From Fibrobacterota bacterium (lineage in GTDB: Bacteria; Fibrobacterota; Fibrobacteria; UBA5070), in NCBI GenBank assembly GCA_029557215.1, contig JAKPQQ010000222.1, positions 18,481 to 82,480 of the forward strand: DNA of 64,000 nt, written 5' to 3'. The notes under the pieces were generated by a model that had not been told where the DNA came from, did no database searches, and saw only the letters and a program-made list of their open reading frames with translations. Of this stretch, positions 1,978-7,368 are shown piece after piece. A program made the position numbers and the translations under genes. Position 1 is the first letter of the stretch, and each line of letters starts with the position of its first letter.

Positions 1978-4900
1978 ATGGGCAACACCCTTCGCGTCGT
2001 CGGGGCGCACGAACACAATCTCAAGAACATCTCCGTCGACCTGCCGCGCGACCAGCTCGTGGTCCTGACCGGCGTGTCGGGATCCGGCAAGTCCAGCCTG
2101 GCGTTCGACACGATCTTCCGCGAAGGCCAGCGCCGCTACGTGGAGAGCCTTTCCAGCTACGCTCGGCAGTTCATCGGGCAGATGGGCAAACCCGCCGTCG
2201 AACACGTGGAAGGCATCTCCCCCGCCATCTGCATCGACCAGAAGACGGTGAACCGCAACCCCCGATCCACCGTCGGGACCACCACCGAGATCCTGGACCA
2301 CCTGCGCCTCCTGTACGCGCGCCTGGGCGAGGCCGCATGCCCCGTCTGCGCGGAAAAGATCGAGGCCCGCACGCCGGGACAGATCGCGGAACGGATCCTG
2401 TTCGACCGGCCCGACGAAAATTGCCTGCTCATGGCGCCCGTCGTGAAGCGGCGCAAGGGCGAATACCGCGCCGAGCAGGAAGAGTGGAAGACCCAAGGGT
2501 ACCGGCTCGCGCGCATCGACGGCGAACTGCACGACCTGTCGACCGCCAAGGAGCTGGAACGCTACGAGAACCACACCCTGGAACTGGTTCTCGACAGAAT
2601 CCGGATCGAAGAAAAGAACCTCCCCCGCCTGCGCGAAGGGATCCAGAAGGCACTGCAGCTCGCCGAAGGCACGGTGTCGATCCTGACCGGTCCCGAAGCG
2701 TTCGAAGGCAAGGGGAAGGAAGCCGTCTTCTCGGCGCTTCGCGCCTGCCCCAACGGCCACGTGGAACTGCCCGAACTGGAGCCCCGCTGCTTCTCGTTCA
2801 ACCATCCTTCGGGCGCGTGCCCCGAATGCAAGGGCATCGGCGTCCTGCGGACCTTCGACGAAGACCTGCTGGTCCCCGATCCGTCCAAGTCGCTGGAAGA
2901 GCGCGGACTCGCGGCCATCACCGACAAGGGCACGCTGATGTTCAGCGACTGGGGCCCGCGCGAGCTCAAGGCGATCGCCGCGCGCCACGGGTTCAAGCTC
3001 GACACCCCCTGGAAGGACATCCCGGCATCCGGACGCCGCGCGATCCTGCGCGACGGCGTTCCCGAGCGAGGTCTGCGCGGGGCCATCCCCGTGCTGCAGG
3101 AACTGTACGACCAGTGGAACATCCGCCTGCTGGAACGGTTCATGCGCTCGCGGACCTGCCCCTCCTGCGAAGGTTCCCGGCTGGGAATCGTCAGCCGGAC
3201 GGTCAAGTTCCGGAAGAAGGGGATCCACGAACTCACGGGGATGACGATTTCCGGTCTGGCCGAATTCTTCCGCAAGGTCGCGCCATCGGAGTTCGAGATC
3301 AAGGTGGGCCGCGAGATCTTCCGCGAGATCCGCGAACGGATCTTCTTCCTGGAAGCGGTGGGGCTGGACTACCTGTCGCTCGATCGCTCCGCCTCGACGC
3401 TTTCCGGCGGCGAAGCCCAGCGCATCCGGCTGGCCGCCCAGGTGGGAGCGGGACTGCAAGGCGTCCTGTACGTGCTGGACGAGCCGAGCATCGGACTGCA
3501 TCCGCGCGACAACAAGCGCCTGCTGGATACCCTGCGCCGCCTGCGCGACCGGGGCAACTCCGTCCTGGTGGTGGAGCACGACCAGGAGACCATGCAGGAA
3601 GCCGACCACGTGGTCGACATCGGCCCCGGCGCTGGAAGCCTGGGCGGGAACATCGTGGGCCAGGGGACCTGGAGGGACCTGGCCAACACGCCCGGATCTC
3701 CCACGGGCCAATTTTTATCCGGAACCGCCGGCGTCCCGATGCCCGCCACCCGCAGACCCTGCGGCAAGGACGTGCCGCGCCTGGTCGTGAAGGGCTGCAA
3801 GGCCCACAATCTCAAGAACGTGGATCTCGCGCTCCCGCTGGGGCGCTTCATCGCGCTTGCGGGAGTCTCGGGTTCCGGCAAGAGCACATTCCTGGACCAC
3901 ATCCTGGGGCCGGCGCTGGCCAACCATTTCGCGCGCGCCGAACGCGAAGTGGGCGAGCACGCGACAATCGAAGGCCTGGAGCACCTGGACAAGGTGATCG
4001 AGATCGACCAGGCACCCATCGGGCGCACGCCGCGCTCGAACCCCGCCACCTACACCGGCGTGTTCGACGAGATCCGCAACCTGTTCGCGGCCCTGCCGGA
4101 ATCGAAGGCCCGCGGCTACAAGGCCGGGCGGTTCTCGTTCAACGTCGCGGGAGGACGCTGCGAGGAATGCGAAGGCGCGGGGTCCAAGGACGTGGAGATG
4201 CAGCTTTTGGCCAACGTGCAGGTGGAATGCGAGGAGTGCGGCGGCAAGCGGTTCAACCCGCCCACGCTCGAGGTCCATTTCAAGGGCAAGACGATTTCCG
4301 ACGTCCTGGAGATGACGATCGACGAAGCCCTGGAATTCTTCCAGGCCGTTCCCAAGATCGCGCGCGGCCTCAAGACGCTGCAGGACATCGGCCTGGGCTA
4401 CGTGAAGATCGGGCAGCCGTCCACCACGCTGTCCGGCGGCGAGGCGCAGCGCATCAAGCTCGCCACCGAACTGCAGAAGCCATCGACAGGAAAGACCCTG
4501 TACCTGCTGGACGAACCCACCACGGGTCTGCATTTCCAGGACGTCTCGCGCCTGGTGGTCGCCCTGCAGGAACTGGTGGACCGGGGCAACACGGTGATGG
4601 TGGTGGAACACAACCTCGATCTCGTACGCGCCGCCGACTGGGTCCTGGACCTGGGCCCCGAAGGCGGCGCCGCGGGCGGCCACCTCTGCGCCGAAGGCAC
4701 GCCCGAACAGGTGGCCAAATCGAAGAAATCGCCGACCGGCCCGTTCCTGGCGCAGGCGATCGAGGCGGCCAAGGCAATGCGTACGATGCCCCCAACCGAC
4801 GTAGGGGCGAGGCATGCCTCGCCCTTACGAAAAACGGTTGGGGACGACCCCGCGATTGCCATGGCCGCAGAACCACCCGCATCCCCCGACCTCGACATCC

Positions 4901-7368
4901 GGGTGCGCGGGGCGGTCAAGCACAACCTCAAGAACATCTCGGTGCGGATCCCGCGCCATTCGCTCACCGTGATCACGGGGCCGAGCGGGTCGGGCAAGAC
5001 CAGCCTCGCGTTCGACACGCTGTTCGCCGAGGGGCAGCGGCGCTTCGTCGAATCTCTGTCCACCTACGCGCGCCGGTTCCTGGGACGCCTGGACCGCGGC
5101 GAAGCCGATTCGATCGAGGGGCTTTCTCCCGCCATCGCCATCGACCAGAAGACGGCGTCGCGTTCGCCGCGATCCACCGTGGCCACCCTCACCGAGATCT
5201 ACGACTACCTGCGCCTGCTGTGGTGCCGCGCCGGCATCCAGCACGATCCGGCCACGGGCGAGGTCCTGCGCCAGTGGAGCGCGGCCGAAGCCGTCGACGC
5301 CGCGATCAAGGCCGCCGATGGTCAGATCCTGTCCGTCTGGGCGCCGTTGCACATCCCGGCGTCGGGACTCCCGCTCTTCCTGGCCGAATCTTCGCAGCTG
5401 CCGCGCGTGGCCGAACAGCTTCTGGAGCTGGGGTTCGAGGTCGCCGAATCGAACGGCAAGGAAATCGACCTGCGCAAGCCATCGGCGCCCAAGGACGGCT
5501 CGCGGGTGTTCGTGCGCGTGGACCGCATGAAGGCGCGGACGGGGGAACGCAAGCGCCTGATGGAGGCCGTGCTCAAGGCCCGCGACGAAGCCCACGGGAT
5601 CTGCCTGTTCAAATGGGAGAAGGGCGAACTCTGGACCGGCGCGAACGCGTTGAACCCCTCGTCCGGCTACTGGCAGAAGGAGCCTTGGGAGCCCAAACAC
5701 TTCTCGTTCAACAGCCATTTCGGGGCCTGCCCCGCCTGCGAAGGCCTGGGCGGATCCAAGACGCGGCCGTGCCCCGTCTGCCACGGCGAACGCCTGCGGC
5801 CCGAGACCGCGGCGGTGCGGGTGGCCGGGAAGCGTCTGCCGGAATTCGTCAAATCGACCGTCGACGAGGCGTTGGCGTTCGTGAACGGACTCAAGCTCAA
5901 GGGCGCCGCCGCCGAGATCGCGGTGCCGGTGGTGCGCGAACTGAGGGGCCGCCTGGAATTCCTGTCCGACGTGGGCGCCGGATACCTTTCGCTGGATCGC
6001 GCGGGAAACACGCTGTCGGGCGGCGAGGCCCAGCGCATCCGCCTGGCGAGCCAGATCGGATCGGGCCTGGAGGGCGTCCTGTACGTGCTCGACGAACCCA
6101 CCACGGGTCTGCACCAGAGCGACACGAAGAAGCTGGTCGACACCCTCCACCGCATGCGCGACCTGGGCAACACGGTGGTGGTGGTGGAGCACGACCCGGA
6201 ACTGATCCGTTCGTCCGACTACGTGGTCGACATGGGCCCGGGATCGGGCGAAGAAGGCGGCGAAGTGGTCGCATCCGGAACCGTCGCCGAAATCGAATCC
6301 CACCCGGAAAGCCGCACCGCGCGCTACCTGTCGAGGCGCGACACGATCTCCCGCACGGCGATTCCCGTCACCAGGGCGGAATGGATCCGCGTCAAGGGCG
6401 CGTCGCTCCACAACCTCAAGTCGGTGGATGTCGACATCCCGATGGCGCGCATGGTGGGCATCGCGGGCGTGTCGGGATCGGGCAAGAGCACGCTGGCGCT
6501 GGACCTGCTGGTTCCCGCGCTGCAAGCCGCCAAGGACGGAAGGAAGAAGATCCCAGGGATCAAGTCGATTTCCGTCGACCAGGAGATCCAGGAGGTCGTC
6601 CTGGTGGACCAGAGCCCCATCGGGACCACGCCCCGATCGACCCCGGCGAGCTTCTGCGGCGTCTGGGAGAACATCCGGGAATTCTTCGCCGCCGTCCCCG
6701 AGGCGAAAGCCAAAGGGTGGGACCGGAGGCGGTTCCAGTTCAACGGCGGCAACGGCCGTTGTCCGGTGTGCGAGGGCCGGGGTGCGGTCGAGCTGGAAAT
6801 GCACTTCCTGTCGGACGTGTGGGTGAAATGCGACGCCTGCGGCGGAAAGCGCTTCGACGAAGACACGCTCGCGATCCGGTTCCGGGGGCGCAACGTGGCC
6901 GACGTGCTCGCCATGCGCGTCGACGAAGCGGCGGAGTTCTTCTCGTTCCACAAGAAGACGCACCGGATGCTCCAGACGCTCGTGGAACTGGGACTGGGAT
7001 ATCTGCGCCTGGGCCAACCGGCCACGGAACTGTCGGGCGGCGAATCGCAGCGGCTCAAACTCGCCGAGGAACTGGGCCGCAACCGCCGCGGACGGGCCGT
7101 GTACGTGCTCGACGAACCGACCACCGGCCTGCACCTGTCCGACATCGACCTGCTGGTCAAGGCGCTCGACAAGCTCGTGGAGCGAGGCGATTCGGTCGTG
7201 GTCGTGGAGCACCAGCTGGACGTCCTGGACGCCTGCGACTGGATGATCGAACTCGGACCGGGCGGCGGCGCGGCGGGCGGTCGGATTCTGTTCCAAGGTC
7301 CTCCCGGAGTGGTTCCCGCCAAGACACCGACCGGAGCGGCCCTGCGGGCGTACCGGAAGCGGCGCTGA
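1978..7368 (+). CDS. uvrA: Tandem UvrA-UvrA fusion (two complete excinuclease ABC subunit A-like modules in one 1796-aa polypeptide)
   Basis: Module 1 (aa 1-~950) has the N-terminal Walker A ([14 protein letters not shown]), zinc modules ([30 protein letters not shown]), insertion/UvrB-binding-like regions and two ABC signatures (LSGGEAQRI). After a ~45-aa Ala/Pro linker, module 2 restarts with [34 protein letters not shown] and carries its own ABC signatures and C-terminal zinc finger ([17 protein letters not shown]). No in-frame stop in the linker. Confidence 0.85.

Follow-up and report, generated by a model that had tools for sequence, protein, structure and literature searches.

A single open reading frame encodes two UvrA modules

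The stretch of DNA analyzed here (the window, 64 kb in length) belongs to an uncultured Fibrobacterota bacterium (assembly GCA_029557215.1, contig JAKPQQ010000222.1) and carries at positions 1978..7368 a tandem uvrA-uvrA gene. The coding sequence lies on the forward strand, as do all the features of the gene described below, and it is one open frame with an ATG start, being 1796 codons long plus the stop, without any internal stop. Both halves of the encoded 1796 aa protein match UvrA. Module 1 (1978..4782, residues 1–935) shows the complete plan of a class I UvrA, composed of a first nucleotide-binding domain (NBD-I), a first zinc module (Zn1) with the UvrB-binding domain, a second zinc module (Zn2) with the insertion domain, the second nucleotide-binding domain (NBD-II), and a third zinc module (Zn3). 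It is followed by an Ala/Pro-rich, poorly conserved, and length-variable linker (4783..4893, residues ~936–972) and by module 2 (4894..7365, residues ~973–1796), where both nucleotide-binding domains, Zn2, and Zn3 are present and the Zn1 ligands and the insertion domain are absent.

A single-chain fusion of this kind had been proposed earlier from the sequence of the window (hereafter the original prediction), together with the caveat that a frameshift or stop hidden in the linker could conceal two ordinary uvrA paralogs. The open frame, the domain map, and the orthologs all bear out the fusion, and the factual elements of that first description proved correct. Intact orthologs of 1793–1810 codons are present in five independent Fibrobacterota assemblies derived from metagenomes (L001, L002, L004, L006, and L007), the nearest genome loci being metagenome-assembled genomes of Fibrobacteria, and in these five the frame stays open across the linker. 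Because the orthologs are uninterrupted in independent assemblies while in-frame insertions and deletions distinguish their linkers, the frame is not an artefact, and intact orthologs across phyla equally rule out misassembly or two adjacent genes. Also, an identical protein is already deposited in NCBI, JGI, and ENA, and the name "excinuclease ABC subunit UvrA [Fibrobacteria bacterium]" is carried by a 98%-identical protein that clusters with it.

Split versions of the gene do exist. Two entries of 620 and 1183 aa lie on one contig and belong to the same 98% cluster, and one further locus (L010) presents frames of ~899 and 902 aa. In both cases the breaks fall away from the module boundary, so these versions look like sequencing errors. 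The L010 contig (DBTH01000231.1) is labeled Candidatus Methylacidiphilaceae UBA1321, and its gene copy is 89% identical to the one studied here and is preceded by the same kind of upstream palindrome, the two frames being of 899 and 902 aa; the probable causes are mis-binning of the contig and an erroneous frameshift. The locus is a genuine, vertically conserved "double UvrA" gene.

Domain organization of the two modules

Residues 3–929 of module 1 align end to end with positions 4–942/943 of the profile NF001503, an NCBIfam equivalog for UvrA (1267 bits, cut-off 1147). The module also scores 1222 bits on TIGR00630 (cut-off 729.8), and its residues 2–932 match the Mycobacterium tuberculosis UvrA (PDB code: 3zqj) with 1027 bits. 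At the domain level, Pfam places UvrA_inter at residues 132–236 (87 bits, E = 9e-25) and a partial UvrA_DNA-bind at residues 294–357. The Zn1 ligands are C121, C124, C257, and H261, and they surround the UvrB-binding domain (2338..2760); C257 and H261 occur in a CPNGH form that the M. tuberculosis enzyme has too. The Zn2 cysteines (C281, C284, C394, and C397) enclose an insertion domain of 109 residues (2818..3174), where the UvrA_DNA-bind match falls, and a third Cys motif (C728, C731, C751, and C754) forms the Zn3 finger (4159..4245). In the segment of residues 216–225, the equivalent of R216 is retained and that of E222 is Gln. With the insertion domain and the three zinc modules of class I UvrA in place and a full-length equivalog match above the cut-off, the earlier description of module 1 as canonical holds.

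Residues 962–1796, corresponding to module 2, reach 947 bits on TIGR00630, above its cut-off of 729.8, and 970 bits on NF001503, which is under the cut-off of 1147 and is distributed over two stretches. The comparison with the UvrA from Bacillus stearothermophilus (PDB code: 2r6f) is broken in the same manner, with module residues 12–299 aligned on 23–303 and 302–819 on 422–941. Because the alignment breaks at this point, the ~118-residue insertion domain is absent exactly between the Zn2 Cys pairs, which in module 2 (5728..5781, residues 1251–1268) are separated by 10 residues. Both Cys pairs of Zn1 are replaced as well, by HDPATGE (residues 1089–1095) and NPSSGYW (residues 1226–1232). These two segments flank a UvrB-binding-like domain (5242..5673); in each of the modules, 132 residues lie between the Zn1 positions and correspond to a UvrB-binding-type domain. 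The one in module 2 is divergent, its Pfam UvrA_inter score being 20.4 bits, under the cut-off of 23.3, and it contains a family-specific insertion of ~10 residues (residues 1130–1140). The R216 equivalent is again retained, and the E222 equivalent is Leu. The Walker A, signature, Walker B, and H-loop motifs are intact in both sets, and the Zn3 finger CPVC...CDAC (6760..6846, residues 1595–1623) is preserved too.

An AlphaFold2 model of module 2, calculated with 34 sequences, has a mean predicted local distance difference test (pLDDT) of 86.8 and a predicted template modeling score of 0.76, with pLDDT above 90 across the UvrB-binding-like domain. In Foldseek, this model matches UvrA structures, UvrB-bound ones included, with template modeling (TM) scores of 0.82–0.85 (3uwx_A, 2r6f_A, and 9ga3_B, being 0.85 for 2r6f_A). 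Alignment and motifs therefore agree with what had been predicted for this module, namely the lack of Zn1 and of the insertion domain together with the presence of the ATP-binding cassette (ABC) motifs, a UvrB-binding-like region, and the C-terminal zinc finger.

The linker and the internal ATG

The linker region (residues 931–975) contains 9 Ala and 7 Pro among its 45 residues, and the first eight residues of the modeled module 2 (962–969) have pLDDT values under 50. Across the tandem family the linker is 10–60 residues long, and those of the orthologs vary by in-frame insertions and deletions. The ratio of nonsynonymous to synonymous substitution rates (dN/dS), calculated by the Nei-Gojobori method against five orthologs, is 0.26–1.1 in the linker versus about 0.1 in the modules; with dS close to 1 these values are rough, the contrast between modules and linker being consistent. 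Many other linkers of the family are strongly basic, rich in Lys and Arg (for example, RRRRKKTKG and KKRRKRR), unlike the Ala/Pro-rich linker of this clade. A basic tether near the DNA groove could contact DNA.

An ATG at 4861–4863 encodes Met962, inside the linker, and it had been suggested that separate expression of module 2 could start here. The codon exists as described. Moreover, Met962 is retained in 9 of 13 close relatives, within an (A/P)MAAEP motif (4861–4875) in the midst of an otherwise variable linker, and this motif could be left over from the N-terminus that the downstream gene once had, or it could be an internal start specific to the clade. Separate expression, however, finds little in its favor, because the Met is clade-specific, no conserved Met is present in the linkers of 68 wider tandem representatives, and no convincing ribosome-binding site precedes it, the sole Shine-Dalgarno-like run near this ATG being a GGGGA 16 nt upstream. 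These observations bear on an explanation in which the single frame is an artefact, or two proteins are normally made with module 2 starting from the ATG at 4861. The retention of Met962 in MAAEP in most close relatives and the frameshift-split entries (620 + 1183 aa, and L010) are compatible with it. However, five independent assemblies are open through linkers that differ by indels, more than 120 homologs from several phyla are continuous, the splits do not fall on the module boundary, and neither the family-wide linkers nor the sequence before ATG 4861 offer a start site, which makes this explanation very improbable.

Distribution and evolution of tandem UvrA proteins

In a search of 5.8 billion proteins, the best 120 matches are all tandem UvrAs of 1650–2300 aa, and the sources named among them are Fibrobacterota, Planctomycetota, SAR324, Myxococcota, and "Deltaproteobacteria". 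The fusion had been regarded as unusual, a view that has to be abandoned, since the databases contain hundreds of double UvrA genes from several phyla. Two complete modules were found in all of the 133 full-length tandem homologs analyzed. For the counts that follow, 129 module 1 and 124 non-redundant module 2 sequences were considered. None of these modules lacks a UvrB-binding-type domain. The insertion domain, for its part, is present in 127/129 module 1 sequences and absent from 76/124 module 2 sequences, these last from proteins of ~1750–1860 aa; the 48/124 module 2 sequences that have it come from proteins of ~1900–2000 aa, mostly of Planctomycetota and Myxococcota. Loss of the insertion domain is thus confined almost entirely to module 2. 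Regarding the two exceptions, module 1 of P0025 and of P0075 has 32 and 21 residues, respectively, between the Zn2 pairs, and P0025 appears to be devoid of the insertion domain in both modules (first halves of 511 and 512 aa). Other variations in size are also observed: in P0039, ~170 residues are inserted into the first half of module 1, and P0015, P0059, P0105, and P0114 (2161–2300 aa) carry 230–350 extra residues after module 2.

Within one protein, the modules are 44–62% identical over conserved columns, being 46.6% in the protein studied here, whose module 1 is less like its own module 2 than like the UvrAs from B. stearothermophilus (57.6%) and M. tuberculosis (56.3%). In a neighbor-joining tree, module 1 clusters with stand-alone UvrAs and module 2 forms a separate clade with a mirrored internal branching, both with moderate bootstrap values (50/60 and 40/60 for the clades of module 1 and module 2, respectively). 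Because the trees of the two modules mirror each other, the sequences suggest one old fusion followed by co-divergence of the modules. The insertion of ~10 residues in the UvrB-binding-like domain is common to module 2 of both size classes. Proteins without the insertion domain are scattered over at least two separate module 2 sub-clades, beside proteins that have it, so its loss was probably recurrent. P0015 and P0059 (2250–2300 aa) are possibly the product of a separate fusion, with a weak support of 12/60.

A HMMER search of the whole library with a segment specific to module 2 yielded no protein that is both stand-alone and a true member of its clade. Two candidates, P0168 and P0175, which group in this clade or beside it, are contig-edge fragments of tandem genes and were discarded. 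The same search gave several proteins of 795–893 aa without the insertion domain, and all of them other than these two fall in other paralog clades. Ten stand-alone UvrA homologs of 828–893 aa with their own Met start (P0186, P0188, P0191, P0194, P0245, P0262, P0263, P0276, P0287, and P0288) have a UvrB-binding-type domain, lack the insertion domain, and occupy clades apart from both module 1 and module 2.

These results speak, indirectly and at the level of sequence, for a pairing of the two modules within one chain as a pseudodimer: the modules form a fixed pair that has co-diverged, free module-2-type proteins are not found, the linker is relaxed and variable in length, and the domain loss is one-sided and complementary, as would be expected of halves that divide the work of a single functional unit. 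Alternatively, two chains that do not fold on themselves could associate into an assembly of eight ATPase sites, with like modules paired across the chains (module 1 with module 1', module 2 with module 2') or with the chains head-to-tail, or NBD-II of module 1 and NBD-I of module 2 could pair in a register-shifted or domain-swapped manner. Such assemblies draw support from the fact that each module has everything that a UvrA protomer needs and from the length of the linker (10–60 residues), which by reading, not by measurement, is similar to that of the inter-NBD stretch within a module. Nonetheless, partners are expected to co-diverge in fixed pairs and to lose domains on one side in a complementary manner, as these modules have done, and module-2-type modules are found in fused form only, so an inter-chain or register-shifted arrangement appears unlikely.

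Conservation and selection in the two modules

The Walker A Lys, the Walker B Asp-Glu, and the Cys of Zn2 and Zn3 are invariant in all the module 1 and module 2 sequences. The H-loop His is also invariant, apart from one alignment gap in the second H-loop, and the LSGGxQ signature shows rare conservative variants. In UvrA, R216 and E222 are the pair that contacts UvrB (PMC3025350, citing Pakotiprapha 2009). The equivalent of the first is an Arg in 253/253 modules, and the Glu equivalent to the second is present in 116/129 sequences of module 1 and 95/124 of module 2. With respect to DNA binding, mutation of R712, R722, R724, and R730 in signature domain II abolishes it in the E. coli UvrA (PMC3025350), and the basic equivalents of R712, K/R722, R724, and R730 are Arg or Lys in both modules of most sequences, this protein included. 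The first Cys pair of Zn1 is intact in 85/124 module 2 sequences (46/76 of the short type and 39/48 of the long type), its loss being limited to this Fibrobacteria sub-clade and a few others.

The dN/dS values are 0.07–0.15 for module 1, 0.08–0.13 for module 2, and 0.08–0.22 for the UvrB-binding-like domain of module 2. Within this clade, purifying selection on the two modules is equally strong. The original prediction had referred to one half of the protein as degenerate; given the motif conservation and these dN/dS values, module 2 is not, as it retains its share of the four intact ATPase sites, Zn2, Zn3, the basic residues for DNA binding, and the R216 equivalent.

A different role for module 2 has to be considered here, that of an accessory of the class II (UvrA2) kind, which would act, for example, on other lesions or on DNA-bound drugs, or with Mfd instead of UvrB, the fusion then coupling two activities. 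Across the family, the mean pairwise identity of module 2 is 0.533 versus 0.605 for module 1, and in 99% of the protein pairs the better conserved module is module 1. This faster evolution is consistent with an accessory role, as are the UvrB-binding-like domain that scores under the Pfam threshold and has a family-specific insertion, the lack of Zn1 and of the E222 equivalent in this clade, and the existence of stand-alone UvrA paralogs without the insertion domain, one of them in this window. However, module 2 scores 770 bits against the class I structure 2r6f versus 565 against the Deinococcus radiodurans UvrA2 and 461 against Ecm16, and it retains a UvrB-binding-type domain, which class II enzymes lack (PMC5128194, PMC3167621). 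Moreover, the R216 equivalent is invariant and the Glu equivalent to E222 is kept in the 95/124 module 2 sequences mentioned above. An accessory module 2 is therefore quite unlikely.

Upstream region and gene neighborhood

A perfect 16-bp palindrome, CTGCTCAATTGAGCAG (core TGCTCAATTGAGCA), is located at 1924..1939, ~40 nt upstream of the ATG, and adjoins a conserved TTGTAT(A/C)TTA element. It is a candidate LexA/SOS operator and the sole match to TGCNCN4GNGCA in the window. Cores of the form TGCTCAAATGGGCA or TGCTCATTTGGGCA are present 45–55 nt upstream of the ATG in L002, L004, L006, L007, and L010, and diverged versions of the palindrome are found in L001, L003, and L008, the core being therefore conserved in 5/8 loci and diverged in 3/8. 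SOS control is usual for uvrA genes, and the palindrome looks like a LexA operator by its sequence. A Shine-Dalgarno-like GGAGAGG (1958..1964) lies 13 nt before the ATG, and the orthologs have GGAGG-like runs 3–11 nt before theirs. A scan of the upstream region for sigma-70 promoters gave no match, a result that is uninformative for this phylum.

The neighboring genes are unrelated to repair. They encode AhpC (531–1094), a divergent response regulator on the reverse strand (~1215–1895), a hybrid histidine kinase (7462–9765), a MarR-like regulator, and a PAS-GGDEF-EAL protein. Among the annotated genes of the first 13.5 kb, neither uvrB nor uvrC was noted; beyond these, the window was searched for UvrA-like sequence only.

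A third UvrA-like gene is present on the reverse strand at 47211–49643. Its 810-aa product starts with MRLRGVRTHNL and scores 577 bits on TIGR00630, under the cut-off of 729.8. The protein has neither the insertion domain (CPVCKGAGADGAVPCSAC) nor the Zn1 cysteines, its first signature (LSQGE) and the context of its second H-loop (ITHD) are altered, and its identity is 36% with module 2 and 42% with P0186, a stand-alone protein of 833 aa without the insertion domain. Hence, the genome carries a divergent UvrA paralog besides the tandem gene.

A proposed single-chain damage sensor

Based on the results described above, we consider it probable that the tandem protein is an SOS-controlled intramolecular pseudodimer that works as a damage sensor in excision repair; we infer from the sequence data the pairing of the modules, the loading of UvrB, the role in repair, and the control by LexA. 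According to this proposal, the sensor of nucleotide excision repair in this cell would be one polypeptide, whose modules 1 and 2 would fold against one another and so mimic the UvrA2 homodimer within the chain. The assembly would contain four ABC ATPase sites (two proximal and two distal), two signature-II DNA-binding surfaces, and two Zn3 fingers for damage discrimination. As both modules have retained these elements, the protein should scan DNA and sense lesions in the manner of UvrA2. The modules would differ in their accessory domains. Only module 1 would provide an insertion domain and a canonical, Zn1-anchored UvrB-binding domain, and module 2 would contribute a remodeled, zinc-less UvrB-binding-like domain on which selection still acts. 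The conserved palindrome, as a LexA-type SOS box abutting the promoter region, probably serves to repress transcription.

Several observations weigh against this proposal. The divergent UvrA-like gene at 47211–49643 lies in the same window. In the clade of the tandem gene, module 1 has Gln and module 2 has Leu at the equivalent of E222, one of the two UvrB-contact positions. Some linkers of the family are only ~10–25 residues long and may be too short to reach from the C-terminus of one protomer to the N-terminus of its partner in a UvrA dimer. As for the operator, a single TGCNCN4GNGCA match in the window is not above chance by count, so that its position and conservation are what support it. 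Besides, the assignment to LexA depends on a box, TGCNCN4GTGCA, which the palindrome fits and which was reportedly described for Fibrobacter succinogenes by Mazon and colleagues in 2004.

A stronger version of the proposal is that the tandem protein is the sole excision-repair UvrA of the cell and an obligate, asymmetric single-chain sensor, onto which UvrB would be loaded preferentially on one side (A-A'-B1), the lesion being handed over without separation of the protomers. We regard it as a possibility to be held with considerable doubt. If true, it would provide a natural test of A2B2 versus A2B1 stoichiometry and of the need for dimer dissociation, both of them unresolved (PMC11985968).

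The double UvrA architecture is already known to databases and is biochemically unstudied; our literature search returned no paper that analyzes natural tandem UvrA proteins, and only the length of the Chlamydia trachomatis ct333 gene turned up. The existence of the fusion is hence not new, and the value of these data lies in the pattern of asymmetry across the family and not in this one gene. The fact that the insertion domain is missing from more than half of the module 2 sequences and from only two of module 1 suggests that a sensor can do with a single insertion domain. Studies on the mechanism of bacterial excision repair take a symmetric UvrA2 homodimer as given, and in recent cryo-EM studies there is still debate on A2B2 versus A2B1, on the choice of the damaged strand, and on whether loosening of the dimer interface drives the hand-off to UvrB (PMC11985968). 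In a natural and widespread UvrA made of one chain, the stoichiometry is fixed and each half can be mutated independently, without homodimer scrambling. Tandem UvrAs would thus be a convenient experimental system for models of stoichiometry and hand-off.

Comparison with known UvrA systems

UvrA proteins are divided into classes I, II, and III in a scheme that reportedly goes back to Goosen and Moolenaar in 2008. One close reference is the class I homodimer, represented by the enzymes from E. coli, B. stearothermophilus (PDB codes: 2r6f and 3uwx), M. tuberculosis (PDB codes: 3zqj and 9ga3), and Thermotoga maritima (PDB code: 3pih). Module 1 is a full-length equivalog of these proteins, 56–58% identical over conserved columns. 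Module 2 shares with them the NBD-I/NBD-II, Zn2, and Zn3 plan and a similar predicted fold (TM 0.82–0.85), and the catalytic motifs are found in both modules; however, it lacks the insertion domain and, in this clade, the Zn1 ligands that complete the three zinc modules of class I. The other difference is in the assembly. Here the protomers are joined covalently, with a fixed stoichiometry and no separation, whereas in current models of the hand-off the interface of the UvrA dimer weakens (PMC11985968).

An engineered counterpart of module 2 exists in the E. coli UvrA delta-290-400 variant (PMC3025350), which carries essentially the same deletion between the Zn2 Cys pairs. As a homodimer with both insertion domains gone, this variant suffers in damage discrimination amid undamaged DNA (PMC3025350). 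In the tandem protein, by contrast, the partner module 1 retains one insertion domain.

Class II enzymes (the D. radiodurans UvrA2, PDB code: 2vf7; Ecm16, PDB code: 7sh1; and DrrC) have in common with module 2 the tandem ABC domains and the zinc modules, and lack the UvrB-binding domain while keeping the insertion domain (PMC3167621, PMC5128194). Module 2 is the opposite case, with a UvrB-binding-type domain and without the insertion domain, and its scores are also lower for class II (565 and 461 bits) than for class I (750–770 bits). A UvrB-binding-type domain occurs in both modules, which sets the two apart from class II.

The same single-chain, two-module plan of ~1800 aa is found in the chlamydial double UvrA (NF001885/PRK00635, 1809 positions, 'excinuclease ABC subunit A'), for example, in the C. 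trachomatis UvrA CT333 (ct333, 5361 bp, 1786 aa), which is annotated as the uvrA of that organism and listed among its DNA-repair genes (PMC6686042). Tandem homologs align colinearly with NF001885 across the module junction. However, the protein described here scores 1210 bits, and Fibrobacter, Planctomycetota, and related tandems score 1213–1318 bits, far under the cut-off of 3054 bits, so membership in the chlamydial equivalog is rejected. On these profile scores, the protein belongs to a different, distantly related sub-family.

Tandem UvrAs of ~1860–1915 aa also occur in uncultured Sutterella (L009, 6001–11685; L015, 6001–11535), being 38% identical to this protein. They follow the same module 1-linker-module 2 plan with the canonical-like module at the C-terminal side, and their N-terminal module groups with a divergent single UvrA from Bacteroidales (L014). 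Because of these module affinities, the Sutterella tandem looks like a separate fusion with the opposite module order. Finally, the tandems of 1900–2000 aa from Planctomycetota and Myxococcota share with the Fibrobacterota protein both the plan and the module clades and differ in that module 2 has kept its insertion domain.

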